A stretch of 64,000 nucleotides of DNA, taken from the NCBI GenBank assembly GCA_965216465.1, contig CBDCFW010000003.1, positions 32,001-96,000 on the forward strand, read 5' to 3'. A program made the translations under genes and the position numbers. Of this stretch, positions 9,177 through 40,069 are shown piece by piece. The notes beneath the pieces were generated by a model that searched no databases, had not been told where the DNA came from, and saw only the letters and a program-made list of their open reading frames with translations. Within the stretch, counting starts at the first letter, position 1. Every line of letters starts with the position of its first letter. The DNA comes from Bacteroidia bacterium (lineage in GTDB: Bacteria > Bacteroidota > Bacteroidia > NS11-12g > UBA9320).

Positions 9177-10544
9177 ATGAAGTATTTCTGTTGGGGAGCA
9201 GCACGTCAGGTTACCGGGAGTATGCATCTACTGCGTTTCGAAACCGGGTTTTCAATGCTTATTGATTGTGGAATTGATTATGAAGATAAATCAAACAAAA
9301 CGATTAATGCTGTTTTTCCTTTTGAGCCCAGCGAAATTGATGTTTTAGTGTTGACTCATGCACACATTGATCACAGTGGCAATATTCCCAATCTAGTACG
9401 TCAAGGATTTAAAGGCGAAGTAATTTGTACAGAACCAACTGCCTATCTTTTAGATAAGTTATGGACTGATTCTGTGGGAATTATGAATGCGGATAGTAAG
9501 CGTAAGGATAGGGTGAAACTGTATGGTTATAAGGATGTTAGAGATGCTTGTGAGCGAATATTAACACTGCCTTTTTATAAGGAGTTTTCTGTACATGATG
9601 ATGTCTCAATAGAACTTTTCGAGGCGGGTCACATTATTGGTGCCGCCAGCGTTTCTGTTAAATATAAAGAAGGACGAAAGGAGAAGAGAATCGGATTCAC
9701 TGGAGACCTTGGTAATCCAGGATCAACCTTAATTGTTGACTCCAATGTCATGCCTAAGCTAGACTATTTGGTGACGGAAACAACGTATGGAAACAGACTG
9801 CATAAAGAGACTCGCTCGGCAGAAGATGTGCTTTACGAACAAGTTTACGAATCGTGTGTCAAAAATAACGGGAGATTAATTATTCCTGCATTCAGTGTAG
9901 GAAGAACTCAAGCTATTTTGTTTACACTCAAGAAGCTTTTTAAGTCTAAAAAGTTACCACCTATTAGAGTTTTTGCAGACAGTCCATTGGCGTTAGCAAG
10001 TACAAATATTCATAATCGATTCAGCGACTTTCTGAATTTGGAAGCTCGTTCGTATGCTAAAGATCAAGGCAGCTTATTCGATTTTAAAAGCTTGCAACTG
10101 GTTGAGGATGAAGAAGATGTAGAAGAAATGGATTACTATCAAGATGCCTGTATTATAGTTTCTTCTGCCGGAATGTTAGAAGGAGGGAGAATACAGCAAC
10201 ATGTAAGTGATCACATTCAAAATCCCAAGTGCACAATACTTATCGCAGGTTTCTGTTCGCCAGGCACGTTGGGTGAGAAGTTGCTATCTGGGGCCACAAT
10301 GTTAAAGATAAAGGGCAAGGAGAAGTATGTTTATGCTAATATTCTACAGACTGATGTATTTAGTGCACATCCAGATGCAAATGGGTTGAAGGAGTATTTA
10401 AATGAGTCGGACCATTCGGCATTAAAGAAAATCATATTTGTTCATGGAGAGGAAGAGTCTATGGAGCTGCTTAAGGCTGACTTACCCTCAGCATTGGCTG
10501 AAAAGGTTCAAATTCCTGAACGAGGAGAAGAGTTTAATCTTTAG
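9177..10544 (+). CDS. MBL-fold beta-CASP metallo-hydrolase (RNA-processing family)
   Basis: THAHIDHSG, AGHIIG, FSVGRTQ, FSAHPD, VHGE. Confidence 0.9.
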   Translation: MKYFCWGAARQVTGSMHLLRFETGFSMLIDCGIDYEDKSNKTINAVFPFEPSEIDVLVLTHAHIDHSGNIPNLVRQGFKGEVICTEPTAYLLDKLWTDSVGIMNADSKRKDRVKLYGYKDVRDACERILTLPFYKEFSVHDDVSIELFEAGHIIGAASVSVKYKEGRKEKRIGFTGDLGNPGSTLIVDSNVMPKLDYLVTETTYGNRLHKETRSAEDVLYEQVYESCVKNNGRLIIPAFSVGRTQAILFTLKKLFKSKKLPPIRVFADSPLALASTNIHNRFSDFLNLEARSYAKDQGSLFDFKSLQLVEDEEDVEEMDYYQDACIIVSSAGMLEGGRIQQHVSDHIQNPKCTILIAGFCSPGTLGEKLLSGATMLKIKGKEKYVYANILQTDVFSAHPDANGLKEYLNESDHSALKKIIFVHGEEESMELLKADLPSALAEKVQIPERGEEFNL

Positions 10545-10554
10545 GTTCAAATCT

Positions 10555-10686
10555 TGAATGCAAAATATCGAGTGACTATCTACTTAACTGCAAATATGAT
10601 GAGATAAGATTGTAGTGCTGAGATAGCCACCCAATATTTTAACTAACCTTATTAATTTATAAACCGCCGCACGATCTCTCATTGCG
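10555..10686 (-). ncRNA. Candidate sRNA-1 (hairpin RNA; ends approximate)
   Basis: 20-bp stem 10640-10621 / 10581-10562, fully paired on the minus strand with three G-U pairs; upstream box and -7-like TTAGTTCG. Confidence 0.6.
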
Positions 10687-10721
10687 ACACTGCGAACTAA
10701 GCTAAGAACGAACGCTTAATT

Positions 10722-10739
10722 TGTAGTAAATCATTGATT
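10722..10739 (-). promoter_or_regulatory. Repeated box copy 1 (AATCAATGATTTACTACA)
   Basis: Upstream of -7-like TTAGTTCG (10700-10693) at the shared spacing. Confidence 0.75.
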
Positions 10740-10759
10740 TTTATGAAGTAGAACTTTTT

Positions 10760-10872
10760 ATGTCTGATTGTAGATGTGAAGTTGAGAAGCTAGCCTTCGA
10801 GATCATAACTCCCTTACGTTAGAATGTTCGGCTAGCCCCCAACATCGTACTAATAACTACTATACTTAATGT
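10760..10872 (-). ncRNA. Candidate sRNA-2 (hairpin RNA; ends approximate)
   Basis: Stem GUUGGGGGCUAGCC (10843-10830) / GGCUAGCUUCUCAAC (10795-10781) with G-U pairs on the minus strand; upstream box and -7-like GACATTTG. Confidence 0.55.
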
Positions 10873-10906
10873 ATCTTCAAATGTCAGATTCTTGAATGAC
10901 TTAAAA

Positions 10907-10924
10907 TGTAGTAAATTGTTGATT
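10907..10924 (-). promoter_or_regulatory. Repeated box copy 2 (AATCAACAATTTACTACA)
   Basis: Upstream of -7-like GACATTTG (10885-10878) at the shared spacing. Confidence 0.75.
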
Positions 10925-10933
10925 ATTAGGCAT

Positions 10934-10963
10934 AAAAAAAGGCTTTGGAAGTCCAAAGCCTTT
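10934..10963 (-). terminator. Intrinsic terminator of the 541-aa/390-aa operon
   Basis: GGCTTTGGA/TCCAAAGCC stem with U7 tail on the minus strand, 20 nt after the stop at 10983. Confidence 0.85.
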
Positions 10964-10982
10964 AATTTCTTGTTGCGATCGT

Positions 10983-12155
10983 TTAATCTTGTTTAACAAA
11001 TGGCAACATTTGTGAAGCTTGACGCGGAACGTCAATCTTCAGGTAATACATTCCGTGACTCAAGTCGGAAGTGTTTACGGTATAGGTGTTTCCAGATTTT
11101 ATTTGCGTCTGTATATCAACAATCTTAACAGGTTGACCAAGTGTGTTTTGTATTGAAATGATAGGGTCGTGAACGAGCAATAAGTTAGAGGCGTCATTGA
11201 TTTTAAACTTAAGCTCATATGTTACTACAGTCGGGAAGACCTCAATTTGAACACCGTCAATTGTTCGGTCTAAAATTGCAATACGATGGTATTCATGGCT
11301 TTCGTCAAAGTCAACTTGTTTCAAGCGATAGAATACTTGATTGATGCCATGCAGGTTTTTGTCCTGAAAGCTATATTGAAGTATTTGATTTGAGTTACCG
11401 TTGGGTGCAGCACTCTTCACAACCCCAATTTTCTCAAAAAATGTTCCATCTAAACTCCGTTCAACTTCAAAGTGTTGGTTGTTGATTTCAGTAGCTGTTG
11501 ACCAATAAACCAGAGCCTCAGTTTCTGAGGTCCACCTAGCATCAAAGCTTAAAAGTTTAACTGGCAATGGAATCGTGTCTGAAGACTGCGTTAAATTGTA
11601 CGACGTAAATATTGTTGAAGGATTAGGTCTCATGGTTATGTTGGGTATAAAACCATTAACGGTCATGGTGCTGTCAAATCCTGTTGGTCCAACTCCGTTA
11701 ACGGCTTGAAGCATTCTAACAGTGGCTCCAGCAGTTGGATTCGAAAACTTTAATTTGTATATCGTATCAATGGTACCTGCGGTGGAAACATTTCCAAAAT
11801 CCGTTGGTCCGTTAATGGTATAATCGATAAATGCCAAATTATCCGGATTAGATCCCATCCCACCAGCTACAGTGGCTGCATCAAATGAATTACCTAAGTT
11901 CCATGTTCCTTGCACATCGGTTTTAGTTATTGTGCCTAAATCTTCGTCGTACCACAACGATATTCTTGAATTATTGGTAACTCTCATCCCTGTTGCTGCT
12001 GGGTTTGCTGGCCATTCAAGGTAAACAGCAACTTCATCAAAGTTAGTGCCTATTGGAACCATTTTGACTTCTGGAGCTTGGGAATAAACTCTTGATCCAG
12101 CTAGGCATAAAAGGCTCATAAAAACGATTTTACTTATTCTCATTTTAATTTTCAT
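10983..12155 (-). CDS. T9SS type A cargo protein with N-terminal beta-sandwich (possibly cohesin-like)
   Basis: Signal peptide; LPVKLLSF...WSTATEINN...FEVERS...YRLKQVDFD Ig-like domain; FPT...GMYYLKI CTD. Confidence 0.85.
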   Translation of the reverse strand: MKIKMRISKIVFMSLLCLAGSRVYSQAPEVKMVPIGTNFDEVAVYLEWPANPAATGMRVTNNSRISLWYDEDLGTITKTDVQGTWNLGNSFDAATVAGGMGSNPDNLAFIDYTINGPTDFGNVSTAGTIDTIYKLKFSNPTAGATVRMLQAVNGVGPTGFDSTMTVNGFIPNITMRPNPSTIFTSYNLTQSSDTIPLPVKLLSFDARWTSETEALVYWSTATEINNQHFEVERSLDGTFFEKIGVVKSAAPNGNSNQILQYSFQDKNLHGINQVFYRLKQVDFDESHEYHRIAILDRTIDGVQIEVFPTVVTYELKFKINDASNLLLVHDPIISIQNTLGQPVKIVDIQTQIKSGNTYTVNTSDLSHGMYYLKIDVPRQASQMLPFVKQD

Positions 12156-12183
12156 TTTGCGTGTTGATTTATATTTTGTTTGA

Positions 12184-13809
12184 TTATGGTAATTGTTGTG
12201 TTAAACCTGAAAAACCTTGTGAACCTCCAAAGAAGGTGTTTGAGGGATGACTTAAAATGACATTCAGAATCTCAGTGACATCATTATCTGTTCCTTCATA
12301 TTTTACATCTCCATCCATATTAATGTCGCTCATAGAATAGACTCCCGAATAATTAAACCCTTGAGATCCACCCAAAAATGTATTGCCAGGTGCTGCCAGA
12401 ACGATATTCAAGATTTCTGTAACGTCATTTCCGGAGCCTTCATAGAGTATAGATTCATCGTAGTTTACATCTCCAACCCACATGGCGTTTACGCCAGACT
12501 GACTTGCTGCAGCATTTGTACCAAATAGCGATACTGTACTGAAATCAAGTGATTTCCCTGACGATGTGAGTTGAATCGGATTTGCGGCCATTATACCAAA
12601 GTGGTTACGATGACGTACAGATACATAAACAGAATCGCTAACAGGACTCGAGAAACAAAGAGCACTGGTGCCGTCTGTGCTCACAATGTCTCCATCTCGC
12701 TGAATTAATGCCGACTGAGTTTCGAGAACTGTACTGCTGTTTGAAGTGTCTCGAAGTTCGATCATAACCCAATCTACTATAGCGTCGTTGCCAGTAACGC
12801 TCAATACGGTAGTTGTAGTTGTCTCACCACCACCATTTCCAGCATGAGAAAAGGCTGTGAGGGAAGTATAGGGCTCAGTAAGCGGAATTAAATTGTTGGA
12901 CCGCAGATGATCTGACATTGTAGTTCCAGAGCCGCTAATAAGTGCACCTTGCAAATAAGCCTTCGCCGATAAGCAAACATCTCCAATTTCTGCTAGGGCA
13001 TACACTTCAAAGGTGTTTGGAATAAGAGCAGCATCGGTAGAAATGGTTCCTGAATCTACAATTGATGAGCTTCCTGCAAAAGAAAGTGTACTCTGACCAG
13101 CAAGCATGGCTGTGGCATCTACTGTAGATTCAATTTGAACCCATTTTGATCCGTCCCAACCTACGATAGTTAAGTTTTGAATATTTCCTGAGGTAAAGGT
13201 GTTCATGTCGTCTGACAAGTTCCACGAAAGGGTAATTATTGCACTGTTTGAGCTGTTAATGTCCCAGTATCCTGAATTGTTCACACTTCCTATGCCGTCT
13301 TCAACACTGTCTGTATTAAATGTAGATCCTCCTGGTAGAGCTCCATAATCTATACCATCAATTCGGTCGGTTATGGCCATTGTTGGATCGGCATTGTAAT
13401 AAGCTACATTAGCATCTCCACCAACGCTGCTTAAGCCAACTGGATTATAAGTTCCATTATCTCCAACGGGAAAAACAAAGCCTCCTGTGTGATAACATCT
13501 AACATAGCCATCAACATGTGCGTTAGTATTTGCATTTTGCCATGATCCTGTGGTCGTAAAACTTAAGTAGCCAGGAACACTAGAATCTCGATCTGTTCCG
13601 ACAAGTCCAGAGTAGATGCCAGAGCCTGTTGTGAAGTTGTGTTCTCCAAAAATGGCCATTTCACCGCCTTTGGTAATATTAATTGAGGCAAAGGAGCCAG
13701 ATTGTCCAAATGTGCTTGTACTAACTAAGGTTAACACACAGACGGCCATCCCAGCTAGCAATTTTCTTATACCATAAAAATCGCTTAGTAGTTTGTTTGT
13801 TTCTTTCAT
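12184..13809 (-). CDS. Secreted protein with C-terminal dockerin-like duplicated Ca-binding domain
   Basis: Signal peptide; VDGYV...FPVGD...YWDI region; C-terminal GDVNYDESILYEGSGND and SDINMDGDVKYEGTDND repeats; no T9SS CTD. Confidence 0.75.
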   Translation of the reverse strand: MKETNKLLSDFYGIRKLLAGMAVCVLTLVSTSTFGQSGSFASINITKGGEMAIFGEHNFTTGSGIYSGLVGTDRDSSVPGYLSFTTTGSWQNANTNAHVDGYVRCYHTGGFVFPVGDNGTYNPVGLSSVGGDANVAYYNADPTMAITDRIDGIDYGALPGGSTFNTDSVEDGIGSVNNSGYWDINSSNSAIITLSWNLSDDMNTFTSGNIQNLTIVGWDGSKWVQIESTVDATAMLAGQSTLSFAGSSSIVDSGTISTDAALIPNTFEVYALAEIGDVCLSAKAYLQGALISGSGTTMSDHLRSNNLIPLTEPYTSLTAFSHAGNGGGETTTTTVLSVTGNDAIVDWVMIELRDTSNSSTVLETQSALIQRDGDIVSTDGTSALCFSSPVSDSVYVSVRHRNHFGIMAANPIQLTSSGKSLDFSTVSLFGTNAAASQSGVNAMWVGDVNYDESILYEGSGNDVTEILNIVLAAPGNTFLGGSQGFNYSGVYSMSDINMDGDVKYEGTDNDVTEILNVILSHPSNTFFGGSQGFSGLTQQLP

Positions 13810-13947
13810 TCAAATTGTATTTAATGTAGTTAATAAATAGTACTCTGATTTTCACAGCAATTGGTCGAACCTTATGCATTGTGGCCGAACCCAATTGGTC
13901 TCATCGAGTAATCAACGGCAAAAGTGTATCGCGAGAAACAGTCGATT

Positions 13948-13965
13948 TGTAGTAAATCGTTGATT
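13948..13965 (-). promoter_or_regulatory. Repeated box copy 3 (AATCAACGATTTACTACA)
   Basis: Upstream of -7-like CACTTTTG (13926-13919), ahead of the 541-aa gene. Confidence 0.78.
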
Positions 13966-14008
13966 TTGAAGAAAAGAGAAAAATTTTAAAATAAAAGCGG
14001 GTATGAGC

Positions 14009-14659
14009 TTAGTGAATTAGGTCGTTCTCGATTCCAAACAGGGTTAATTCTACCATATTGTTAACATTCAGCTTTTGAAATATGCGGTGACGATATGTGC
14101 CAATCGTAGAAGAATGGATGTTCAACTCATCTCCTACGTCTTTCGATGTATAACCATTGATGTAAAGTAACATAACCTCCATTTCTCGGGTGGTCAACTT
14201 GTCTAAAAGTTCATTACTTGTAGTTGAGATTGAAGATGACAATTTAGACACCAACTGTGTACAAACATATTTTCGACCTTCAAGAACTTCTCTTATGGCA
14301 TAAATAATATCCTCGAAAGGGGCATTTTTAGATATGTAACCCTTGGCTCCAGCTTTTATCAGTCGAATCGCAAAGGCCTCAGCAGGATACATTGACATTA
14401 TCAATACCTTTAAGTCGGGATAGGTCTCCAGAATTCTACTAATGCCTGTAATAGGGTTGCTATGCTCCATCTTTAGATCAGCCACCAACAAGTCATATTT
14501 TTTTTGGCTGAGCTTCTGCATGGTCTCTTCATAGCTACTTACGCCGTCAATTTTAGACATCGAATTGATGCTTCTAAGACGCTGAATGAGGCCTTGACGA
14601 ATTATTTCATGATCGTCAGCAATTAAAAAGTGTAGTGGTTGGTCCTGATCATTTAACAT
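14009..14659 (-). CDS. NarL/LuxR-family response regulator (UvrY/GacA-like)
   Basis: IADDHEIIRQG, ADLKM phospho-Asp, SMYP..FAIRLIKAGAKGYISK, LTTREMEV...TIGTYRHRIFQKL HTH. Confidence 0.92.
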   Translation of the reverse strand: MLNDQDQPLHFLIADDHEIIRQGLIQRLRSINSMSKIDGVSSYEETMQKLSQKKYDLLVADLKMEHSNPITGISRILETYPDLKVLIMSMYPAEAFAIRLIKAGAKGYISKNAPFEDIIYAIREVLEGRKYVCTQLVSKLSSSISTTSNELLDKLTTREMEVMLLYINGYTSKDVGDELNIHSSTIGTYRHRIFQKLNVNNMVELTLFGIENDLIH

Positions 14660-14710
14660 AAGTATAGACTAAATAATACTGCAAATTGAAGCCTATTATC
14701 TCAATTTTCT

Positions 14711-14728
14711 TGTAGTAAATCATTGAGA
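14711..14728 (-). promoter_or_regulatory. Repeated box copy 4 (TCTCAATGATTTACTACA)
   Basis: Upstream of -7-like TCAATTTG (14689-14682), ahead of the response regulator itself. Confidence 0.72.
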
Positions 14729-14779
14729 TTTAGGGGTTATATAGCAAATCATAACCTCAATTTAAGTGATTTGTTTGAA

Positions 14780-14797
14780 AATCAATAATTTACTACA
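14780..14797 (+). promoter_or_regulatory. Repeated box copy 5 (AATCAATAATTTACTACA)
   Basis: 24/26 identical to the reverse complement of the copy 3 region; upstream of -7-like CTTAATTG. Confidence 0.75.
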
Positions 14798-14843
14798 AAT
14801 CGATTGAGCGACTAAACCTTAATTGCGGTTAAAAGAAGTAGCC

Positions 14844-15077
14844 ATGCTTGAAACTAAGGAGATTAACTATAAGCCGGAGTCCTTGTCTTCAAAATCGATT
14901 GGTATTCAGTCCTATGCAGACCGTAGAGTCAAACTTAGCAGGCGTGTGAATCGGGATTATACCGTGCTTAGGATCATTTTCAAACCCAAGAATTTAATCC
15001 TCATTGTCGTATTTATGAATCTGGTCGTATTAGACACTTTAATTCAATCATTTAAACGAAAGAAGAAAACTAGATGA
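14844..15077 (+). CDS. Small hypothetical protein, one C-terminal TM segment plus basic tail
   Basis: ATG at 14844; LILIVVFMNLVVL then KRKKKTR; overlaps the next start. Confidence 0.45.
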   Translation: MLETKEINYKPESLSSKSIGIQSYADRRVKLSRRVNRDYTVLRIIFKPKNLILIVVFMNLVVLDTLIQSFKRKKKTR

Positions 15078-15346
15078 AAACTAATTCTACAGAAACTATA
15101 GATCAACGCAAATATTTGTATACCTCTTTGTTTCGAAGAAAACTGGTATGCGAATTTGTTCCATGGCAAACAGAATCTCAATTAACATTAGCTACACCAG
15201 ATGGTGAAGAAGTCTTGTCGCTAGCAATAGCATCAAATACACGCCGTATTGCGCTTGAATTGGATCAACTCAATCCTGGGTTTTATCGATTAAGCCTTGG
15301 AGTAGTAGGAGTTGCCACAATTTCGCAATCCGTAGTGCTTTTTTAA
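15074..15346 (+). CDS. Small protein resembling a stand-alone T9SS type A CTD
   Basis: LATPDGEEV...LELDQLNPGFYRLSL...SVVLF pattern; no signal peptide. Confidence 0.5.
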   Translation: MKTNSTETIDQRKYLYTSLFRRKLVCEFVPWQTESQLTLATPDGEEVLSLAIASNTRRIALELDQLNPGFYRLSLGVVGVATISQSVVLF

Positions 15347-15459
15347 TTTGCAGTTGATTTATATCTCATTTGAGATTTTCTATATGCTTCTTTAATAAAA
15401 ATTATAAGAATGAGCATCTAAATATATACAGATGCAAGGCTCAAACAGCAGAACTTTGT

Positions 15460-15610
15460 AATGAAAATTATAGCCTTAGCTTGGGGGCGGAAGAAGAAAT
15501 TATCAATGGGTTAATATGTTTCTCGTTCCCCCTAGTGAGCCCAGCATATGGATGTAAGTTCCTCAGATATTAACCATTGTATCATTGTAAGGTGACTGGG
15601 CTGTTTTTCA
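15460..15610 (+). ncRNA. Candidate structured RNA (two hairpins)
   Basis: CUUGGGGG (15480-15487) / CCCCCUAG (15528-15535) stem, then AGCCCAG/CUGGGCU stem followed by GUUUUU; -7-like GAACTTTG upstream. Confidence 0.35.
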
Positions 15611-15715
15611 ACCACATATATCAAATAATTGGCATTTTTTAACATCTTTTTTGATGTTTCTTTATATAGATTTGTATATACAATTAAATACAAAACTGTT
15701 ACAAATTTGACCTGT

Positions 15716-16024
15716 ATGTCATTCGATCCCAACCATAATCACTCAATCACATTAACGGAAGCCGGTAATATGACTGAGGCCTTTAGAGTATCCAATCCAA
15801 CAGAAAAGATTGGAGGCTTTTTTGGTAAGAAAGCAATTCAAGATATTTTGGACCAAACCGATTGTGTAGGTTTGAAATTTTACTTTGCACGAAATAATGG
15901 TGACCTTACTTTGGTTGTTTGTGGTGCCAAAGCCAATCAAGACGATCTATATAATGGAGAACTCGCCGAATTTTCTTACGTCGACCCACCTTACAGTAGC
16001 TCATCCAATCCGTTGAATAGCTAA
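15716..16024 (+). CDS. Small hypothetical protein (102 aa) heading a sensor module
   Basis: ATG at 15716, 6 nt after -7-like CAAATTTG; ITLTEA...FFGKKAIQDIL.Q..CVGLKFYF...LVVCG...DL...PPYS...NPLNS. Confidence 0.8.
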   Translation: MSFDPNHNHSITLTEAGNMTEAFRVSNPTEKIGGFFGKKAIQDILDQTDCVGLKFYFARNNGDLTLVVCGAKANQDDLYNGELAEFSYVDPPYSSSSNPLNS

Positions 16025-16027
16025 CCA

Positions 16028-16687
16028 ATGGAAGATTACTACTTGAGTGTTAGGATTATAACCTATAGCTTGTTGATCCTTGTTTCATTATTTCGATTGC
16101 TGCAAGAACGCACTCGAGTAGTAATCTTGATTTTGATTTATGCACAGATTTGTCTACTGACTGACTTTCTTGATGTTGTATACATTTCATCAAATCTTGA
16201 ATTGTATTCAATTTTTAATTTGTGTCGAATCTTAATTATCTATTTTTTAATATCTCCTCAATTTTCAAATAGACTTATTCTTTATCTTAGCTTCGGTTTT
16301 TTTGTACTCATTACGGGACTTGCATTTCTAGGAACGTATAATTTTGAGTTCCTAAATTCTCATACGATTTATACTTCGAACTATGGATTTTTAGATACTT
16401 ATGAAAATAACTTACTTCTGCTGATACAAACCGTGGTCGTATTGCCTCTGTTATTTTTTGCGGTATATAAAGCAATAGCAACACCCACTACAAAATCACA
16501 GGTAAGATATTATGCAACCTGCTTTGCTTTTATCTTATCTTATGCCGGAATGCTGTTTAGTACGATTTTAGGAAATTTTATAATTCTTGATTTTAAGCTT
16601 TTTATTGAAATTTCAACTTTGATACTATACACAGTCTTTTTACTTTCGAATGGATTTCTACTTGGGGGACTTTTATGGAAGAAATAA
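16028..16687 (+). CDS. Multi-pass (6-7 TM) membrane protein, probable sensor subunit
   Basis: Successive hydrophobic segments; overlaps the kinase start. Confidence 0.75.
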   Translation: MEDYYLSVRIITYSLLILVSLFRLLQERTRVVILILIYAQICLLTDFLDVVYISSNLELYSIFNLCRILIIYFLISPQFSNRLILYLSFGFFVLITGLAFLGTYNFEFLNSHTIYTSNYGFLDTYENNLLLLIQTVVVLPLLFFAVYKAIATPTTKSQVRYYATCFAFILSYAGMLFSTILGNFIILDFKLFIEISTLILYTVFLLSNGFLLGGLLWKK

Positions 16688-17421
16688 AACTGGCGGTTTA
16701 CTTGGGTTCGTTCTTGTTGCTGGCAATATTGCTAGTAACTGTGCTTATAATCCTTTTTGCTCAAAAAAAGAAACGAGAAGCCCTCCTCCAACTAAAAGAT
16801 AGTGAAATCGAACATCAAAAAGAGCTAGCCATCAACAATATCCAAGCTCATGAAGATGAACGTCAGCATATTGGCCAAGAATTGCACGACGATCTCGGGC
16901 AGCAGCTTGCATCTGTAAAAATGCAAATGGAATCTGGCGTAATCAGCAATGACCTATCAAAAGTGGAATTAGCGATGGATAACATGTCTCAAGCCATTTC
17001 TAAGGTGTCAAACATCTCCAGACTGCTTTATCCTGTAGTGCTTAAGAAGTTCGGCCTAGTAAAAGCTTTAGAGCATTTGACAGCCAATACAGAAGCAGAT
17101 ATTACGTTGGCCATCCACGACGAAATATCAAAAATTGAAGATTACAATATGCATTTGCATATCTATCGTATATATCAAGAACTAATTTCCAATAGTATAA
17201 AACATAGTAAGAGTACATCGATTCAAATGAAATTATCCAAAGAAAGCGAAGGATATTTGCTGAGCTATTCCGATGATGGAGTAGGGTTTGACTATGAAAA
17301 CTCAAACTATGGTCTTGGTTTGCACAATATAAAAATCAGAGTTGACAGCATCGGAGGTAATCTTGAAATTAAAACAGCCCCTGATGAAGGCTTTAACTGC
17401 ACAATAACATTTAATCCATGA
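16675..17421 (+). CDS. Sensor histidine kinase (HisKA_3 / NarX-like), single TM
   Basis: ERQHIGQELHDDLGQ, YRIYQELISNSIKHS, DDGVGF, GLGLHNI. Confidence 0.93.
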   Translation: MEEIKLAVYLGSFLLLAILLVTVLIILFAQKKKREALLQLKDSEIEHQKELAINNIQAHEDERQHIGQELHDDLGQQLASVKMQMESGVISNDLSKVELAMDNMSQAISKVSNISRLLYPVVLKKFGLVKALEHLTANTEADITLAIHDEISKIEDYNMHLHIYRIYQELISNSIKHSKSTSIQMKLSKESEGYLLSYSDDGVGFDYENSNYGLGLHNIKIRVDSIGGNLEIKTAPDEGFNCTITFNP

Positions 17422-18059
17422 ACACAACAACCATTTGTATAGCAGATGACCACGAAATAGTTAGAGAGGGATTTGTTACCCTACTGAATTCTTTTGATGA
17501 ATTAGAAGTGCTTTTTGATACTTCTAATGGACAAGAGTTGCTAGACCGGCTGAAAAACTCAGCCCTGCCTGATGTTATTTTACTTGATGTTGATATGCCC
17601 ATATTAGACGGCGTTGAGACCTTGAAGGCATTAAGGTCAGCCTATGGAGACAAAGTAAAGGTGCTTGGCTTATCGATGCACGAAGAATACTTTATTGTTC
17701 AAAATCTATTGGAACTTGGTGCGAATGGATTTATATCTAAATCTGCATCGGCCAAACAAGTAAAGAATGCAATTTTAACCGTAATGGAATATGATTTCTT
17801 TTTAAGTCCTCAAATGTCGAAGTCATTATTTGGAAGTAAGTTCAAAGACAGTGCAGGCTGTGCTGAACTTTCAAAAGTAGAAGAAGAAATAGTGGTGTTG
17901 ATTTGTAACCAATTGAATAACAAGCAAATAGCTGCAGAATTGAAGCTTTCTCCAAACACGGTAAATGCCTACCGAACCAAAATATTAGAAAAAACGGAAG
18001 CGACCAATGCCGCAGGACTAGTTGTTTACGCTATCCGTAATGGTCTCTTCAAGGTCTGA
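17418..18059 (+). CDS. NarL/LuxR-family response regulator
   Basis: IADDHEIVREG, LLDVDMP, C-terminal LuxR HTH; overlaps the kinase stop. Confidence 0.93.
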   Translation: MNTTTICIADDHEIVREGFVTLLNSFDELEVLFDTSNGQELLDRLKNSALPDVILLDVDMPILDGVETLKALRSAYGDKVKVLGLSMHEEYFIVQNLLELGANGFISKSASAKQVKNAILTVMEYDFFLSPQMSKSLFGSKFKDSAGCAELSKVEEEIVVLICNQLNNKQIAAELKLSPNTVNAYRTKILEKTEATNAAGLVVYAIRNGLFKV

Positions 18060-19742
18060 GTTTCTGTATAGCTTTTTAAGCTTTCCATTCCTTTTATAAG
18101 CAAAGTATTGGTCTGAATAGGCCATCCTAGCAAGCTCTGCATCATTTGGTAGTTTCATATATTGCACCTGATCTTTTTTAGGAGTTAATCGTACTTTATC
18201 TCCACCCTTAATTACAATATCTATTGGAAGCTTAAAGTTGTTTTCAGTCTTTGCCCAGCGGTAGTATATGCCATCATCAGCAAGTGTGTATTCCAATTCA
18301 GGAACATTTCTGTTGTATAAATACTGATCGAAAAACCAGCGAAGATCTTCACCGCACTTTTTATTCGCATAGGCTATAAAGTCTTCACTGTCAACTAAAT
18401 CGTATTTGTTTTCTTCGTAAAACCCACTTAGAATAGACCAAAACAGCGTGTCGTTATCGATGTAGCTTCGGAGTGTGTTTAGCATCCAGGCACCTTTGGT
18501 GTAAACATCACCATCTCGAAAATCAAAGTACCGGAGTCCTTCAGGACCGACTAATGGACGCTTATTCTTGATGGTAATACGGTACATCCATAGATAGTTG
18601 TCGTATGCATCTTTGCCCGATTTGTGCTCTACATACATGGCTTCGCTGTAAGTGGTTATGCCTTCTTGAAGCCATACATGAGCTAGGTCACGAGCAGTTA
18701 CAGAGTTTCCCCACCATTCGTGGCCGGTTTCGTGCAAAACGATGTAATCGAAGCCTTGGCCTTTGTTCTTGTATCCGCTACCATAGGCAATAGCACTTTG
18801 GTGTTCCATGCCTTCATAAGGTGCCTCTACCATACGATACACATCACGTTGCCAAGGGTAGTTTCCAAAAGTGGTTTCAAAGAAGTGTATTTGTTCTTTA
18901 GCTTGTTTGAAGTGTTTTCGTGCTTTTTTCTCGTTGTATGATAGCACATAATGGCTAATCTTCACCTTATTGCCTGAGGCACTTTGTAAGGTGTCGGTGA
19001 GCTCAACAAAGTCACCCACATATAGGGTTATGTTGTAGGTGTTAATGGGGTAGGATACGCGGTAACAGTAGGTCCAAGAATTGGGATTGTGTTGAATTTT
19101 GGTTTGCACGCCATTGGCAACTCCTACCAAACCTTTTGGAACGGTTAGGTGAATAATGGTCTCATCGGCTTCGTCGGAGGTGTGATCTTTACAGGGAAAC
19201 CAAAGGCTAGCACCATTGGTCTCGCAGGCAACACCTACCCATGGATTTTCATTTTCGTCTTCCTTCCAAACAAAGCCACCGTCCCAAGGTGGTTTTTTAG
19301 CCTTATTGGGTTGGCCTTTGTATTCTACCTTCAGCATAAAGTCGTGTGCAGCTGGAATTGTATTCTTAAAGATGACTTTTATCGCTCCGTAAGTTCGGTA
19401 ATAATGTACCGGGTTTGATTGGTTTTCATTCGTGATTGACACCAATTCCATGTTTTCATAAAGGTCAATTTGAATGGTGTCGGTTTCTGTAATGGTAGTT
19501 GCGTGAATTTCAACACTTCCTGCAATCGCTTGAGTTTCAGGAAGAACTTCAAGGTCGAGCTTGTATTTAGTTACGTCGTAGCATGACTTGTGGTTGTTAA
19601 GCTCTCCAAGCAAGAGAAGCTTCTCAGTTTTTTTAGGGTATTTGCCTGCAATTTTGGCATTCTTGACCCTAAAATCGATGGCACAGCTAGAAAACAGCAA
19701 TGCAGTTGCCAGGATAAGGTTAGTTAGTTTAAAGGTTTTCAT
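18018..19742 (-). CDS. M1-family aminopeptidase (lipoprotein)
   Basis: GMEHQS; HETGH-18x-E zinc motif; VYTKG; lipobox FSSC. Confidence 0.92.
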   Translation of the reverse strand: MKTFKLTNLILATALLFSSCAIDFRVKNAKIAGKYPKKTEKLLLLGELNNHKSCYDVTKYKLDLEVLPETQAIAGSVEIHATTITETDTIQIDLYENMELVSITNENQSNPVHYYRTYGAIKVIFKNTIPAAHDFMLKVEYKGQPNKAKKPPWDGGFVWKEDENENPWVGVACETNGASLWFPCKDHTSDEADETIIHLTVPKGLVGVANGVQTKIQHNPNSWTYCYRVSYPINTYNITLYVGDFVELTDTLQSASGNKVKISHYVLSYNEKKARKHFKQAKEQIHFFETTFGNYPWQRDVYRMVEAPYEGMEHQSAIAYGSGYKNKGQGFDYIVLHETGHEWWGNSVTARDLAHVWLQEGITTYSEAMYVEHKSGKDAYDNYLWMYRITIKNKRPLVGPEGLRYFDFRDGDVYTKGAWMLNTLRSYIDNDTLFWSILSGFYEENKYDLVDSEDFIAYANKKCGEDLRWFFDQYLYNRNVPELEYTLADDGIYYRWAKTENNFKLPIDIVIKGGDKVRLTPKKDQVQYMKLPNDAELARMAYSDQYFAYKRNGKLKKLYRNSDLEETITDSVNN

Positions 19743-19842
19743 GTTCAACGAATATAAAGTTTATCGAGAAAATGAAGGCAAACATATTCACATGCGTAGT
19801 CCAAAAGAGTGGTATATTTGTTTGACCATAAAGAAAGAAAAT

Positions 19843-33485: not shown

Positions 33486-36400
33486 TCATTTTACAATCTT
33501 AATAACCTTTTCTTGTCCGTTGTAATCAACCTTCAAGAAGTAAAGACCGCTTGGAAGTTGACTTAGGTTATTAATATTGATCATTGCTAATTCGTTTCTT
33601 TTATTTCCTTCTGTAACAATTATCTCAGTACCTTGAACATCAAGGATTGAAATCTTGTATTCTCCAATTCCATTGATAAGTACATTAACGTAGTCGTTTA
33701 CCAAAGTAGGGAAAGCTGTAATGTCGTTAAGTTGATCGTTTTTAAGTGATACGATTTCAGAGTATGAAGACGCTCCATCAAAATCATGTTGTTTCACACG
33801 GTAGAAGATGAAGGACGTTTTAAGCTCTTTCACATTCGCATCGACGTAGGCATAATTATTGACTTCTTCGCTATGACCACTTGCACTGACGACGGCTATA
33901 GGTTCAAACTGTTCGTTTATTCCCATTCGTTCCAATTCGAAGTGAGAGGCATTAACCTCAGAGAATGTAGACCATTCAACAAGTCCGTCGCGCTCTGTAA
34001 GCCATGAAGCCTGAATTGATCTCCAGCTTACAGGAAGATAAGGTTGTCCTGATGTAGTATGGAAACCAAAGTCATTTCCACCATCGTACGAACCTCCTTG
34101 AACAAATGAAGCACTTTCTGTCATGTACTGACTTGTGGTCGTATAGAAGGTGTCAAATGCCGTTCCTGCAATTACGGGACGCATTAAGAAGTCTCCAATA
34201 CTATCGGTTACAAATACATACAATCCTGTGGTAGGTTGAGAGTAAGTGCTGTCGATAATGCGGTCTGCAGAGGTAATTATACCATCTCCATCAACATCGC
34301 GATAGAGGTATACCTTAAATCCACCGTGTGCACTGTCAATCTCTCGGTTATACGATCCAGACACATCATCGTCATAGAAAACTACACCTGAAATAACATT
34401 GGTTAAAGGACCAGTTAAACAATCGCAAGCTTCTAAATCTGTTGCACCACCTGTTTCGCTAGTTAATGTAGCAATTTCAGTTCCAACTCCTGTATTTCTA
34501 TCGATTTGATAAATGGTGTTGTCTGAGTAAGTATTTGTACCTGATACACCTGTTGTACCATACAATTCTCCGGTATTGTAATATCCCATACCTTCAAAGT
34601 CACCCACTCCAATAAATGATAGCACTTCTGCACTACCGGTAGCAGGGTCAATGGTAATGTATCTTGCACTGTCACCATTTCCTCTGTTATTTACAGCTAA
34701 AAGCTGACCAGAATATGGGTTGAAGGCAATATCATCAACGTCAACCATCACTCTGGTACCAATGATTTTCACAAAATCTATACCTGCACCAAAGAAATCA
34801 GGCTGATAAGATCCAGTTCCTCGGTTAATTACAAAAAGTAGGTCTGGAGCTCCATTTCTACGCTCAACACCGTATAAAATTCCATTAATTGGGTCAAATG
34901 CCATTCCATCTACATCATTTAACGTCTCTGTAGATATTGTTCCACCACTTAAAATACCTGAGGCAGTACCCATACCTGTACCAATTTCGGTGAATTCTCC
35001 AGTTAGTAAATCAACTGAACCGAACTGACCTTCGTCACAAGCCCATAAACTGTCCATTCCAATTTTAAGTGCCATGGCTTCAATCAGATCGCGTCCATAA
35101 ACCTGACCTGCAAATTGACTTTTCCCGCTGATTCTATTTACCAGATAGTATTCATCCTGGTTGCCTTGGTCGTCGGCTATTACAACACATAAGCTACGAG
35201 GACCCAACATTCCAAAATCTGCAACTATGGTGTCAGTACCTGCTGATAATGTGAAGTTTAGCACCGTATCTGTGGTGAAAGTTGTACTGGCATCCAAATC
35301 TTCAGTAGAAAGTTTGACTACCAAATTGGTAACACTGTCTTTATCATCTAAAAAGTAGGAGTAGTTTGCTAATGCATCGGTTAGGCTAGAATTTAGCAAT
35401 TCGTCAGCAGTATACACTCCATCATTATTTGCATCGTTAAAAATCTCTATTTCTACGGCTCCGGATCCATACGAATCGTAAGCATCTTTTACGCTATTTG
35501 CATCCATGTCCATGAATACATTACCACTAACATATCTTCCTCGCAATCCAACAAGCTCTAAGTTGAAACCAAGGTCATTATTGGATGCACCAACATTGTG
35601 GATCTCAACGGCTATAACATTGGTGCCAGTTACCAACTCGTCAACAGGTAAGATAAAACGTTCGTAATCACCTTCGTCGTCACCTTCTGCCATGTGTAAG
35701 GCGTAGGTACTGTAATCCCAAGTAGAAGGCATTCCTACTTCGAGTATTTGTACACCGTTTAAATAAATAACAGCTCCATCGTCAGCTAACAGATCTAGCT
35801 GAAGGGCTGTATAAGTACTATCCGAAACATCAAAAGTTTGTCTGAAATAAGTTGTAGGGTATCGATTGTTCGAAGCACTACCATAGTCTATAGTCGTTGT
35901 TATGGATGCTCCATCAATTGTACCGTAACCAAAAATTCTTTCACCCGTAAGCCAGTTCGAATCGTTATACGATGTGCCATACCAAGAGGTGCCCAAGTTT
36001 GCCCCTGAATCGTGGTATTGCCATTCGCTAATACTCGTTATCAGGTGATCAGACAAGTCGAGAGCTGTTACTTCAAGGTCTAAGGCGATGTCTTGATTGT
36101 GTACATAGAAATTGTGCAATTCAACCGCAAACGTGTTTACGCCTTCAATTAAAAAGGTGTCGAGAATGTGAAATGCTGTGTAATTTCCTTCCTCAGCTCC
36201 ATCTACATTTACTGTAGCCTCTGTAAGATAGGTAATTGTTCCTGTAGGCATATTGTACCGAAAGGCTTCTTTACCGTTAATGTACACAACAGCACCGTCG
36301 TCGCACAAAAGATTGAGCTCTAAATGAGAGTTGTTGAGGCTGCCTAGTGTTACCTCTTTTCTGTAATACGTCGTAAGTTTACGGGTAACTGGTGTTGATT

Positions 36401-36626
36401 GTGTTGCTCCAATAATTCCACCTTTCCCAAAGATTCCTTGATCGACTTCCCATGACGAAACGTCAAATCCGGAGTCAATCCATGAAGTGCCTTGATCAGA
36501 CCCATCGTCGAGATAGGTCCACATGTCCTCCTTATCAATGAGGGTTGTTTGAGCAATAAGGTCGTTGGTTAGCATTCCTAATAGGATTAGAAATAACCCG
36601 CCAACAATGTTAGCTGTATTCTTCAT
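33486..36626 (-). CDS. Large T9SS type A cargo protein, paralog A (2 jelly-roll domains, SdrD-B-like domains, beta-propeller)
   Basis: Signal peptide; two W.Y.D.G...G..W...DDGAV.Y.NG repeats; SG.VF.D repeats; DGMAFDP/DDIAFNP blades; LPVSW...CTD. Confidence 0.85.
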   Translation of the reverse strand: MKNTANIVGGLFLILLGMLTNDLIAQTTLIDKEDMWTYLDDGSDQGTSWIDSGFDVSSWEVDQGIFGKGGIIGATQSTPVTRKLTTYYRKEVTLGSLNNSHLELNLLCDDGAVVYINGKEAFRYNMPTGTITYLTEATVNVDGAEEGNYTAFHILDTFLIEGVNTFAVELHNFYVHNQDIALDLEVTALDLSDHLITSISEWQYHDSGANLGTSWYGTSYNDSNWLTGERIFGYGTIDGASITTTIDYGSASNNRYPTTYFRQTFDVSDSTYTALQLDLLADDGAVIYLNGVQILEVGMPSTWDYSTYALHMAEGDDEGDYERFILPVDELVTGTNVIAVEIHNVGASNNDLGFNLELVGLRGRYVSGNVFMDMDANSVKDAYDSYGSGAVEIEIFNDANNDGVYTADELLNSSLTDALANYSYFLDDKDSVTNLVVKLSTEDLDASTTFTTDTVLNFTLSAGTDTIVADFGMLGPRSLCVVIADDQGNQDEYYLVNRISGKSQFAGQVYGRDLIEAMALKIGMDSLWACDEGQFGSVDLLTGEFTEIGTGMGTASGILSGGTISTETLNDVDGMAFDPINGILYGVERRNGAPDLLFVINRGTGSYQPDFFGAGIDFVKIIGTRVMVDVDDIAFNPYSGQLLAVNNRGNGDSARYITIDPATGSAEVLSFIGVGDFEGMGYYNTGELYGTTGVSGTNTYSDNTIYQIDRNTGVGTEIATLTSETGGATDLEACDCLTGPLTNVISGVVFYDDDVSGSYNREIDSAHGGFKVYLYRDVDGDGIITSADRIIDSTYSQPTTGLYVFVTDSIGDFLMRPVIAGTAFDTFYTTTSQYMTESASFVQGGSYDGGNDFGFHTTSGQPYLPVSWRSIQASWLTERDGLVEWSTFSEVNASHFELERMGINEQFEPIAVVSASGHSEEVNNYAYVDANVKELKTSFIFYRVKQHDFDGASSYSEIVSLKNDQLNDITAFPTLVNDYVNVLINGIGEYKISILDVQGTEIIVTEGNKRNELAMININNLSQLPSGLYFLKVDYNGQEKVIKIVK

Positions 36627-36680
36627 CTAGTCATAAATTAATCGAGTAGTGCACGCACCACTCTAATGGTTAGTTATGAA

Positions 36681-39800: not shown

Positions 39801-40006
39801 CCGCCCATTCCGAACACCCCTGATCCCGAAGACCATGATGCATCGTTGAACCCAGAGTCAATCCAAGCGGTTCCTTGATTTGAACCGTCATCAAGATAAT
39901 TCCATGTGTCATTTTGGGTAGTAACAGTTACTTGAGCATTAACCCCTAATGCCAAAAAACACATTGTAAAAATCGTGAAAAAACGTTTAGTAGTAGTTTT
40001 GTTCAT
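36869..40006 (-). CDS. Large T9SS type A cargo protein, paralog B
   Basis: Colinear with 33486-36626 (shared GPRSLC, WACDEGQFGSVD, EACDCLTGP, GQPYLPV); YPNP CTD. Confidence 0.87.
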   Translation of the reverse strand: MNKTTTKRFFTIFTMCFLALGVNAQVTVTTQNDTWNYLDDGSNQGTAWIDSGFNDASWSSGSGVFGMGGINGASISTTIVKEITTYFRKEVTVTGHSNGTLDLNLLCDDGAVIYINGKEAYRYNMPSGTVTYTTTASSAVGGSDEGDYTVYTITDTFLIDGVNTIAVELHNQSSGSSDLGFDLEVTAYEAVDSSNYVMFRGGEWSYLDDGTDQGTSWVDSGFNDASWATGDAVLGYGTIDGNTISTTISWGSSSSNKYPTTYFRKEVTLSNPSFSELTCYLVADDGAAVYINGKLAFTAGMPATWDYLTYANFTAAGADEGDYDAYTIPDTFLIDGVNTFAVEMHQVNATSSDLGFDLEVIGKTGRVLYGNIFLDMNGDGLDTSIYDIFGSGAVEIKIYNDADSNGIYTAGECIDSILTNPDGSYSFIVDIEVEHLGVKLMTEDMDSRVDFTTDTTYSFSLNPNNMDSVQACFGQLGPRSLCLLIADDQNNIDEYYIANRISGKNQFVAEIAGRDLIETLAIRIGMDSMWACDEGQFGSVDIMTGEFTSIGTGIGTAQGVLSGGSIGTADLNDVDGMAYDPINDILYGVHRRTSAPDLLFAIDRGAGTFIADHFGTNEDFVKIIGTRVKVDVDDIAFNPYTGQLLGINGQGNGDSTRYISIDPATGTATVLSYVGVGDFEGLGYYNTGELYGTTGIVDAAGYHDNTIYQIDRNTGAGTRLDSLYSGAIDVEACDCLTGPTENLISGVVFYDNDSSGSYSRAIDSAYSNILVYLYRDANENGIIDSGDYIIDSTYTAAGTGFYVFITDSLGFFLTHPSVPGTVFQNMNTTTDSLLTEDAEFEFHGLFDGRNDFGFHINAGQPYLPVEWLEIEAEWIDEKTAKVSWSTASEVNSDYFEVERKTELGEFEKIATVQAAGNSNDVSNYAILDYTAVDLTAPTLFYRIKQFDYDGQFSYSEIAVLNKENETVVSAYPNPVDDHINININATGYYELTVLNLHGAEVIHTSGTKDSILTPLRLNGLTQLRDGMYLIRLRLDDEDHIIRIIK

Positions 40007-40069
40007 CGTGTAGTAATTATTAGTAGTATAACCCCCATAGAAGTAATTAAATACACTCTACAGTTGGTA

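Follow-up and report, generated by a model that had tools for sequence, protein, structure and literature searches.

A candidate two-component and small-RNA regulon linked to type IX secretion cargo genes in a Bacteroidia bacterium

Introduction

Proteins exported through a type IX secretion system (T9SS) include adhesins, gliding proteins and degradative enzymes, through which Bacteroidota make contact with surfaces, polymers and hosts. To our knowledge, the choice that cells make among these cargo proteins is largely unexplained, and the known regulation concerns the secretion machine. The GacS-GacA/BarA-UvrY systems couple a NarL-family regulator to several small RNA (sRNA) genes, RsmY/Z and CsrB/C, through a common upstream sequence; this GacA box is a distal palindromic site, and the sRNAs that it controls are protein sponges with many GGA motifs. 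In Enterobacterales, the two-component pair EnvZ-OmpR activates OmrA and OmrB, two adjacent paralogous sRNAs whose conserved 5' ends pair near the start codons of several mRNAs for outer-membrane proteins (PMC2588501). The paralogous sRNAs GibS and FopS of Bacteroides thetaiotaomicron have a common single-stranded 5' seed followed by a terminator hairpin and different promoters, GibS with a special motif and FopS of the housekeeping type; they repress translation at the start of SusC-like surface proteins, and RNA-binding proteins of the RNA recognition motif (RRM) type are involved (PMC11697453). The closest published case to sRNA control of T9SS cargo, as far as the consulted parts of the reports go, is Rfp18 of Flavobacterium psychrophilum, which is predicted to pair with the mRNAs of several secreted metalloproteases and of an adhesin and is needed for normal protease expression (PMC9723704). 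Two-component control of T9SS-related genes in Bacteroidota is exemplified by PorY-PorX-SigP of Porphyromonas gingivalis (PMC4800418). Here we analyze a locus at positions 10,545 to 18,059 of a 64,000-nucleotide stretch of a Bacteroidia bacterium (NS11-12g, UBA9320; assembly GCA_965216465.1, contig CBDCFW010000003.1, positions 32,001 to 96,000; below, the window), in which one promoter box precedes a response-regulator gene, a secreted-protein operon and two hairpin-forming units, RNA1 and RNA2.

The box, its constant spacing, the set of genes behind it, the hairpins, a seed that RNA1 shares with a conserved sRNA-like gene, and the association of this seed with the start regions of T9SS cargo genes, both statistical and across genera, are all observed directly. 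We consider it about an even chance (probability near 0.5) that, taken together, they represent the core of a species-specific regulon that comprises the box, its regulator, secreted cargo and two seed-pairing RNAs.

A promoter box at the -33 position

The first-pass annotation had noticed one box ahead of five promoter-like elements, and counting bears this out. The 18-nt query TTGTAGTAAATCATTGAT, with at most 3 mismatches, has 5 matches in the 64-kb window (10721, 10906, 13947 and 14710 on the plus strand, 14781 on the minus strand), where 0.16 are expected; none of 100 shuffles reaches 5. Across the genome, 8 sites match with no more than 1 mismatch and two others match less well, about 10 overall, and the exact 16-nt core is present in 7 copies. 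In the sense of transcription the consensus is aAAaTCAAyGATTTACTACAA (18-21 nt). In all nine aligned promoters the end of the box is separated by exactly 20 nt from a -7-like octamer, and the spacer and both flanks of the box show no conservation. The octamers resemble T...TT.G or TnnnTTTG (e.g., TCAATTTG, CACTTTTG, GACATTTG and TAGTTTCG); several are degenerate, and most are of the T...TT.G type. The housekeeping promoter of Bacteroidota has TAnnTTTG at -12 to -5 as its -7 element and TTG at -33, about 19 nt farther upstream (PMC9723704). Since the octamer appears to correspond to the -7 element, the box 20 nt ahead of it occupies the -33 position, where it stands in place of TTG. This appears to be the layout of an activator-dependent promoter. 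The GacA-style upstream box, initially taken as the model, does not describe it: the box is asymmetric and located at -33, and is not a distal palindrome.

Behind the boxes lie a NarL/LuxR-type regulator, three T9SS-cargo operons, a helix-turn-helix (HTH) regulator, an M23 peptidase, and two units poor in open reading frames (ORFs). The boxes outside the window precede two paralogous operons, each with a 303/308-aa secreted protein first and T9SS-sorted proteins of about 250 aa next, as well as the genes for a 360-aa BetR/HTH protein (C5, about 301.7 kb; perfect 16-nt core) and for the M23 peptidase. The copy ahead of the response-regulator gene makes this gene a candidate for autoregulation. 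In the box-driven 303/308-aa genes (C3:230333 and C3:281566) the ATG lies just 4 nt past the -7-like octamer, so their mRNAs would be leaderless or nearly so. As a whole, the box-marked promoter set appears to be small and species-specific.

Response regulators and the kinase module

The protein encoded at 14009-14659 has both domains of a NarL/FixJ-type response regulator (Response_reg, E = 5.4e-20; GerE, E = 1.6e-15). It aligns over its full length with VraR, DevR, DesR and NarL, and the acidic pair, the phospho-acceptor Asp, and the Ser/Thr and Lys positions are retained in the alignment. Its description as UvrY/GacA-like has to be withdrawn: the best NCBIfam model is indeed UvrY/SirA/GacA (NF007018), but its 133.3 bits fall short of the cut-off of 280, and the scores of many other NarL-type models come close. 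Membership in the GacA/UvrY family is thereby ruled out, and the protein is a generic NarL/FixJ-type regulator.

The box is most likely the site of an activator, and this regulator is the favored candidate. The link is one of position: its own promoter region has a box on either side, and five copies are grouped around the gene. Because neither the box nor the regulator has close relatives, co-occurrence cannot tie one to the other. Regulators at metagenome loci are just 34-37% identical to it, and a relative in one genome (G014, 44% identity) has no convincing box nearby.

It is somewhat unlikely, though this is the strongest of the rival explanations, that the box is real and is read by another factor: the 360-aa BetR/HTH protein, the second response regulator (17418-18059), or an alternative sigma factor with an extended -35 element. 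The HTH gene, with its perfect core, has the same appearance of autoregulation, and the sole nearby kinase shares an operon with the second regulator, not with the one at 14009-14659. Moreover, the box is asymmetric and very rich in information (7 exact 16-mers), which is unusual for dimer sites of NarL-type regulators. Against these points stand the clustering of 5 of about 10 boxes around the 14009-14659 gene, two of them in its divergent promoter region, the absence of a box ahead of the kinase module, and octamers that fit the housekeeping -7 element rather than the -10 element of extracytoplasmic function (ECF) sigma factors (consensus as given in the consulted part of PMC9723704). We continue with the 14009-14659 regulator as the favored binder.

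The small protein/multi-span protein/kinase/regulator module next to it is as first described; domain searches and the count of about six membrane spans agree with the description. No family in Pfam or NCBIfam matches its 102-aa and 219-aa proteins. The 219-aa gene (16028-16687) and the kinase gene (16675-17421) overlap by 13 nt in different frames and jointly encode 467 aa. Since together they would resemble a single multi-span sensor kinase, the six-span protein and the short kinase may be a split or frameshifted gene. The first ATG of the module, at 15716, lies 6 nt past CAAATTTG, likewise a near-leaderless pattern.

RNA1, RNA2 and the conserved seed

The hairpins of the two RNAs suspected behind the boxes are supported by folding. 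RNA1, predicted at about 128 nt, starts with a short 5' hairpin, followed by a single-stranded 26-nt seed, a 20-bp stem with a large loop, and U4. Its stem-loop (10560-10640, minus strand) has z = -5.9, and none of 200 shuffles folds as well; for the stem-loop of RNA2 (10775-10845, minus strand) z = -3.9, a stability that 1 of 200 shuffles equals. By eye, both units have ATTAA..TAGTTA..TTGGGkGGCTA in common ahead of the stem; together with the stems, this suggests that they are diverged tandem paralogues. The leader of RNA2 has no second copy in the genome. At gathering scores, Rfam finds nothing in the window except two tRNAs, and at E <= 1 a search of three loci gave just one chance snoRNA match. 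With no GGA motif in RNA1 and one in RNA2, the units do not look like CsrA/RsmA sponges, and the proposed mode of action is base pairing.

The seed of RNA1 is what connects the locus to a wider family. All 26 nt are identical, base for base, to C6:144110-144135, which lies within an unannotated intergenic sRNA-like gene elsewhere in the genome. It comes with a TAnnTTTG octamer of its own, with a 5' stretch that is conserved (..ACGTTCT..AATAAGGTTAG..ACTACT..), and with a terminator, the stem of which shows compensatory changes between species; in consensus folding of the family only the base of the terminator is recovered, and no covariation is counted. When 151 genomes of the order were searched with a sequence model of the 5' part, six contained the gene at E <= 7e-15: the source genome (G000) and G024 from the same genus, G044 from a second genus, and G057-G059 from a third. 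The same model recognizes RNA1 at E = 1e-4, and 13 further genomes have weak matches (E about 0.001-0.01). The core AATAAGGTTAG is invariant in four aligned homologues and is also present in G058. The seed block is unpaired in the centroid structure of RNA1 and lies outside the consensus structure of the family. Thus, RNA1 looks like a copy of the conserved seed placed under a box promoter. The genome also encodes two small RRM-type proteins (C3:219962 and C6:93003) and, as in Bacteroides, has no match to Hfq.

Some further occurrences of these sequences can be listed. A stretch GTAATATTTCCAT is conserved about 20 nt upstream of the -7 octamer of the C6 gene and may be a regulator site. Eighteen nt of the seed block occur exactly a third time, at C3:291497-291514; the complement (minus strand) immediately precedes a terminator hairpin that follows a 102-aa gene, among phage- or mobile-looking small genes, and it could be a decoy or sponge for the sRNAs in a 3' untranslated region, or another target. 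An identical stretch of at least 67 nt with a 12-nt seed complement occurs as a repeat at C6:458452 and C6:652287. Pairing of RNA2 with the conserved sRNA is no better (-17.7) than that of shuffles (-17.0 +/- 3.1).

A different explanation is that the units are not trans-acting sRNAs at all, and that they are orphan promoter duplicates, a gene for a 32-aa small protein, or read-through transcripts that are antisense in cis to the 3' end of the beta-CASP RNase gene (9177-10544). An ATG about 10 nt past the predicted start of RNA1 does open a 32-codon frame; at the matching position RNA2 has just an 8-codon frame, and the frame is absent from the conserved sRNA family, in which the 26-nt block lies at the 5' end and indels between genera rule out a shared reading frame. 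Read-through into the convergent beta-CASP gene could follow from the missing terminator of RNA2 and the atypically large hairpin loop of RNA1. A comparison with the DNA of 40 relatives returned short pieces only, so that the units have no homologue there apart from seed block and box. The hairpins are nevertheless far more stable than shuffles, and an exact 26-nt seed whose complement marks cargo start regions would be hard to explain for a junk promoter. We regard this explanation as unlikely and treat RNA1 and RNA2 below as candidate pairing RNAs.

Complementarity to T9SS cargo genes

The sorting domain Por_Secre_tail (PF18962) has 135 matches in the 3.23-Mb genome, 126 of them over the Pfam cut-off, and 124 of these map onto 2,699 ORF calls, which sets the base rate of cargo genes at 4.6%; cargo with other types of sorting domain is counted among the other genes. 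With start regions defined as -40 to +30, a complement of at least 10 nt to the 26-nt seed is present in 8 of 124 cargo genes and in 23 of 2,575 others (Fisher's test, 5e-5). None of 2,000 shuffled seeds, which keep mononucleotide composition only, reaches 8 cargo genes (mean 1.3, maximum 7), and at the same length no cargo gene (0 of 124) is matched by the sense strand or by either reversed control. The signal is also found without reference to the sRNA. When the 47 8-mers that occur in 5 or more cargo start regions are ordered by enrichment, CTAACCTT, the complement of the invariant seed core, ranks first (6 vs 5; p = 3e-6), and AACTACTA, the complement of TAGTAGTT in RNA2, reaches p = 4e-4. 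When start regions are ordered by duplex energy with the RNA1 seed, cargo genes take 5 of the first 10 places and 7 of the first 20 (hypergeometric, 1.7e-5; 0-3 for 8 shuffles); with the RNA2 leader, they make up 8 of the top 40 (p = 3.5e-4; shuffles 0-4). The RNA2 enrichment is thus of the same kind as that of the RNA1 seed, and it is weaker and depends on word length.

The best site for the RNA1 seed is located at -15 to -1 of the gene for a 3,211-aa cargo protein (C5:82412), with 15 of 15 Watson-Crick pairs. Three more of the best sites are found at -15 to -5 (1,217-aa gene), at -16 to -4 (154-aa gene) and shortly past the start (1,329-aa gene); the sorting domain is present in each of the four proteins.

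It is quite unlikely that the complementarity is a by-product of composition or ancestry, that is, of an inverted copy of a cargo leader or of words common to AT-rich leaders. The leaders are indeed AT-rich and shuffled seeds often find matches of 12-15 nt, the site is present in only 6-8 of 124 cargo genes, and three of the eight genes are paralogues. However, with two paralogues removed the enrichment persists (6 of 122 vs 23 of 2,575, p = 0.0015; 7 of 3,000 shuffles reach 6), shuffles of the same composition never reach the full count, and the strand and reversal controls are empty. In addition, the core CTAACC/GGTTAG, which contains G and C, is conserved in both partners across genera, and the AT-rich flanks vary in both (G000 vs G059). 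We keep the reading in which the seed is matched to cargo leaders.

The two targets originally proposed lie in the window, ahead of ATG 36626 and ATG 40006, and their complementarity to the RNAs was recovered. RNA1 has two seed-complementary blocks before ATG 36626, of 10 nt (36633-36642) and 8 nt (36668-36675); the RNA2 leader forms 15 contiguous pairs, 14 of them Watson-Crick, at 40011-40025. By longest helix, the RNA2 pair ranks 6 and the RNA1 pair (12 pairs) ranks 90 of 2,699 start regions. With queries restricted to seed or leader the ranks are 11 and 55, and the crossed pairs rank 2,416 and 327. Both pairings are therefore above background and are not the best; the strongest predictions fall on other T9SS genes, which lie beyond the window, and six of the predicted targets there also carry Por_Secre_tail. 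The ranking of start regions upholds the proposed targets for seed-only queries, and with the long queries considered below they fall into the background. The start region of the regulator mRNA ranks 620 and 74 of 2,699, with no sign of feedback. A 13-nt complement of the RNA1 seed is also present in the neighboring M1 peptidase gene (19714-19726, minus strand), within signal-peptide codons; the protein has no Por_Secre_tail match.

Conservation in other genera

The link between seed and cargo can be followed in relatives through the best target. Of 66 genomes of the bacterial family, six encode members of the N-terminal domain family of the 3,211-aa protein (G000, G024, G008, G044, G057 and G059). 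The sRNA gene and this cargo family are present together in 5 genomes, the sRNA alone in one (G058), the protein alone in one (G008, 75% complete), and neither in 59 of the 66 (Fisher's test, 4e-6, a value that ignores relatedness and to which just three genera contribute signal). A CTAACC-type site that fits the seed variant of the respective genome has been retained in the leaders of the orthologues. In G059 the leader matches the seed variant that its genus carries (as seen in G057 and G058) over 16 nt, TAACCTTATTATTATT, and the flank of the site is ATTATT in this genus and AATT in G000, in both partners alike. Seed-matching sites of 11 nt (G057), 9+9 nt (G024) and 8 nt (G044) are present in the other leaders, and the leader of G008, which lacks a strong sRNA match, resembles that of G024. 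In G057 the gene for a 594-aa Por_Secre_tail protein has a 15-nt match that abuts the ATG.

Other genes of the locus

The secreted-protein operon behind box copy 3 had been described as dockerin-like/cohesin-like. Its two proteins are predicted to be secreted, and a T9SS sorting domain is confirmed in the 390-aa protein. The two C-terminal repeats of the 541-aa protein have a dockerin-like appearance, which is a lead only: Dockerin_1 is annotated in 27% of the proteins of one look-alike Atlas cluster, and the 541-aa protein has no Pfam match at E up to 10. The cohesin-like label finds no support in any search. Por_Secre_tail is above the cut-off in three window genes, 10983-12155, 33486-36626 and 36869-40006. 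Neither Pfam nor NCBIfam has a family for the 77-, 90-, 541- and 303/308-aa proteins. The intergenic region past the two small ORFs (15347-15715) contains a G-rich/C-rich hairpin at about 15474-15533.

The surroundings are variable. The gene that follows the beta-CASP gene differs among relatives, which places the locus in a variable region, and the M1 peptidase (18018-19748) has no match at 1e-50 in 5 relatives. Relatives from the same genus are distant (about 68% amino-acid identity on the adjoining beta-CASP protein), and most genomes of the genus are of about 2.0-2.5 Mb.

Table 1. Positions of the box copies, predicted RNAs, genes and pairing sites (window coordinates unless another contig is given)
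Feature	Position	Strand	Details
Box copy 1	10721..10738	-	0 mismatches; RNA1 promoter; octamer TTAGTTCG at 10693-10700
Box copy 2	10906..10923	-	3 mismatches; RNA2 promoter; octamer GACATTTG at 10878-10885
Box copy 3	13947..13964	-	promoter of the 541-aa/390-aa secreted-protein operon; octamer CACTTTTG
Box copy 4	14710..14727	-	promoter of the response-regulator gene; octamer TCAATTTG
Box copy 5	14781..14798	+	divergent from copy 4; promoter of two small ORFs
RNA1, predicted transcript of about 128 nt	10560..10688	-	predicted start near 10687; both ends predicted
Seed block of RNA1, 26 nt	10638..10663	-	identical to C6:144110-144135
RNA2, predicted transcript	10775..10873	-	predicted start near 10872; leader 10846-10872 (candidate seed); hairpin 10781-10843
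Intrinsic terminator of the cargo operon	10938..10963	-	strong; separates the operon from the RNA2 promoter
Secreted protein, 390 aa	10983..12155	-	T9SS C-terminal sorting domain; second gene of the box-3 operon
Secreted protein, 541 aa	12184..13809	-	signal-peptide-like N-terminus; no Pfam family
NarL/FixJ-type response regulator	14009-14659	-	Response_reg + GerE (Pfam)
Two small box-driven ORFs, 77 aa and 90 aa	14844..15346	+	77-aa protein with C-terminal hydrophobic span
Box-less module	15716..18059	+	102-aa protein, 219-aa multi-span protein, HisKA_3 kinase, second NarL-type regulator
219-aa protein	16028-16687	+	about 6 hydrophobic/membrane spans
Short histidine kinase	16675-17421	+	HisKA_3 + HATPase_c; one membrane span
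Second NarL-type regulator	17418-18059	+	Response_reg + GerE
Two RNA1-seed-complementary blocks	36633..36675	-	leader of T9SS cargo gene 33486-36626; local hairpin between the blocks
RNA2-pairing site	40011..40025	-	leader of T9SS cargo gene 36869-40006; -19..-5 of ATG 40006
Unannotated sRNA-like gene	G000:C6:144084-144228	+	outside the window; intergenic; not in Rfam

Discussion

In the circuit that we propose, the neighboring membrane kinase module probably phosphorylates the 14009-14659 regulator, which would then bind the box at -33 and recruit polymerase to promoters of the housekeeping-sigma type. It would turn on its own gene, three secreted or T9SS-sorted operons, the HTH regulator and the M23 peptidase, as well as two tandem non-coding RNAs from the minus strand of 10545-10880. 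RNA1 would bring in the seed of the family-conserved sRNA, and RNA2 would be its diverged sibling with a different seed. Both seeds are predicted to pair with the leader and start-codon region of other T9SS cargo mRNAs, probably blocking ribosome loading; in Bacteroidota, in which Shine-Dalgarno pairing is absent, the start region is critical (PMC11697453, in the part consulted). The net effect would be that a signal raises one set of surface and secreted proteins and lowers another. The identity of the box binder, the production of the RNAs and repression by pairing are what we infer from sequence in this scheme. Of the regulon switch proposed at the outset, the common box over regulator, cargo and hairpin units has held, as has seed-cargo complementarity above that of shuffles; the GacA identity has not, and the top targets lie elsewhere.

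A number of results speak against the proposed circuit. Some concern the box and its reader. The exact 16-nt core is absent from 190 other genomes of the order (as is the reversed control), and the matches listed for a 17-nt box among GTDB species representatives are scattered singles in unrelated phyla, as expected by chance. The closest relative of the regulator among 5.8 billion proteins is 48% identical, and the box-preceded C5 HTH protein and the second response regulator are likewise candidate binders. As to the RNAs, the box of RNA2 has the 3 mismatches given in Table 1, and its hairpin is not followed by a U-tract, which leaves the 3' end open and may let transcription run on into RNA1; the closeness of the 32-codon frame to the predicted start of RNA1 belongs here as well. 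The remaining points concern targets. Gene starts were taken from a simple caller that picks the longest ORF. Duplex energies of long queries gave meaningless long helices; at query lengths of 41 and 61 nt, the RNA2 pairing at ATG 40006 takes rank 1,267 among 13,482 seeded windows of the genome and rank 189 among 2,699 start regions, and the RNA1 pairing at ATG 36626 takes rank 4,053 among 22,498 such windows. When all genes are counted, complements of the seed show no excess near starts (10 vs 6.1 +/- 3.4; 16% of 300 shuffles reach 10), and a lone 15-nt match is reached by 192 of 5,000 shuffles (3.8%, p about 0.04). The word test for RNA2 gives 7 of 124 vs 32 of 2,575 at 9 nt (14 of 1,000 shuffles) and fails at 8 and 10 nt. 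Finally, in five other genomes TAACCTTATT..ATG is no commoner than its reversed control, so the cross-genus support comes from specific orthologues and not from counts; 8 of the 23 matches precede long ORFs with signal-peptide-like starts, two of them being the same sequence on two contigs, and only one could be traced to its end.

A broader evolutionary scenario can be offered tentatively, with odds somewhat below even. In the bacterial family, part of the T9SS cargo mRNAs, those of giant adhesin-like proteins among them, may carry the leader motif CTAACCTT... as a mark that a dedicated sRNA family reads. The species studied here would have added a copy of the seed and a diverged sibling under a private two-component box, so that an envelope or surface signal swaps cargo sets post-transcriptionally.

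If this scenario is true, it would be a first RNA-based control layer for the choice of T9SS cargo, a class that accounts for about 5% of the genes of this genome (126 sorting domains). Our search of the literature, in which subscription journals were thinly covered, found no described sRNA circuit for T9SS cargo, in line with the first-pass annotation, which knew of no such circuit in Bacteroidota. The locus offers a compact model, with a specific box, a candidate regulator, two predicted small RNAs, and a short list of targets with an 8-15-nt site at the start codon. The conserved sibling sRNA widens the question to at least three genera.

Among described systems, Gac/Rsm shares with this locus a NarL-family regulator and several small RNA genes behind a common upstream sequence. 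Here, however, the regulator scores below the family cut-off, the box is asymmetric and at -33, and GGA motifs are nearly absent. PorY-PorX-SigP is comparable as two-component control in Bacteroidota, and it differs in that an ECF sigma factor acts on secretion-machine genes, whereas here control of cargo through a -33 box and sRNAs is predicted (PMC4800418, consulted in part). In Rfp18 the pairing region is a stem-loop and not a 5' seed, and the consulted part of the report mentions no link to a two-component box (PMC9723704).

Two systems are closer. GibS and FopS resemble RNA1 and its conserved counterpart in the single-stranded 5' seed ahead of a terminator hairpin, common to paralogues under different promoters (PMC11697453, in the part consulted). 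Unlike them, the RNAs considered here have no Rfam match, are known from sequence alone, have T9SS cargo as predicted targets rather than transporters of polysaccharide utilization loci, and include one member under a two-component-type box. With OmrA/OmrB the locus shares a two-component regulator and two adjacent, apparently paralogous RNAs whose 5' parts are predicted to pair near the starts of surface-protein mRNAs (PMC2588501, likewise in part). Yet there is no sequence or Rfam relation, the phylum is different, Hfq has no match here, the regulator is NarL-type and not OmpR-type, the two seeds differ, and feedback on the regulator mRNA is not apparent. Thus, the locus appears nearest in logic to EnvZ-OmpR with OmrA/OmrB, and nearest in phylum and RNA architecture to GibS/FopS, and is a member of neither. 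The evidence partly supports its interpretation as a new variant of the circuits in which a two-component system acts through sRNAs on surface proteins.

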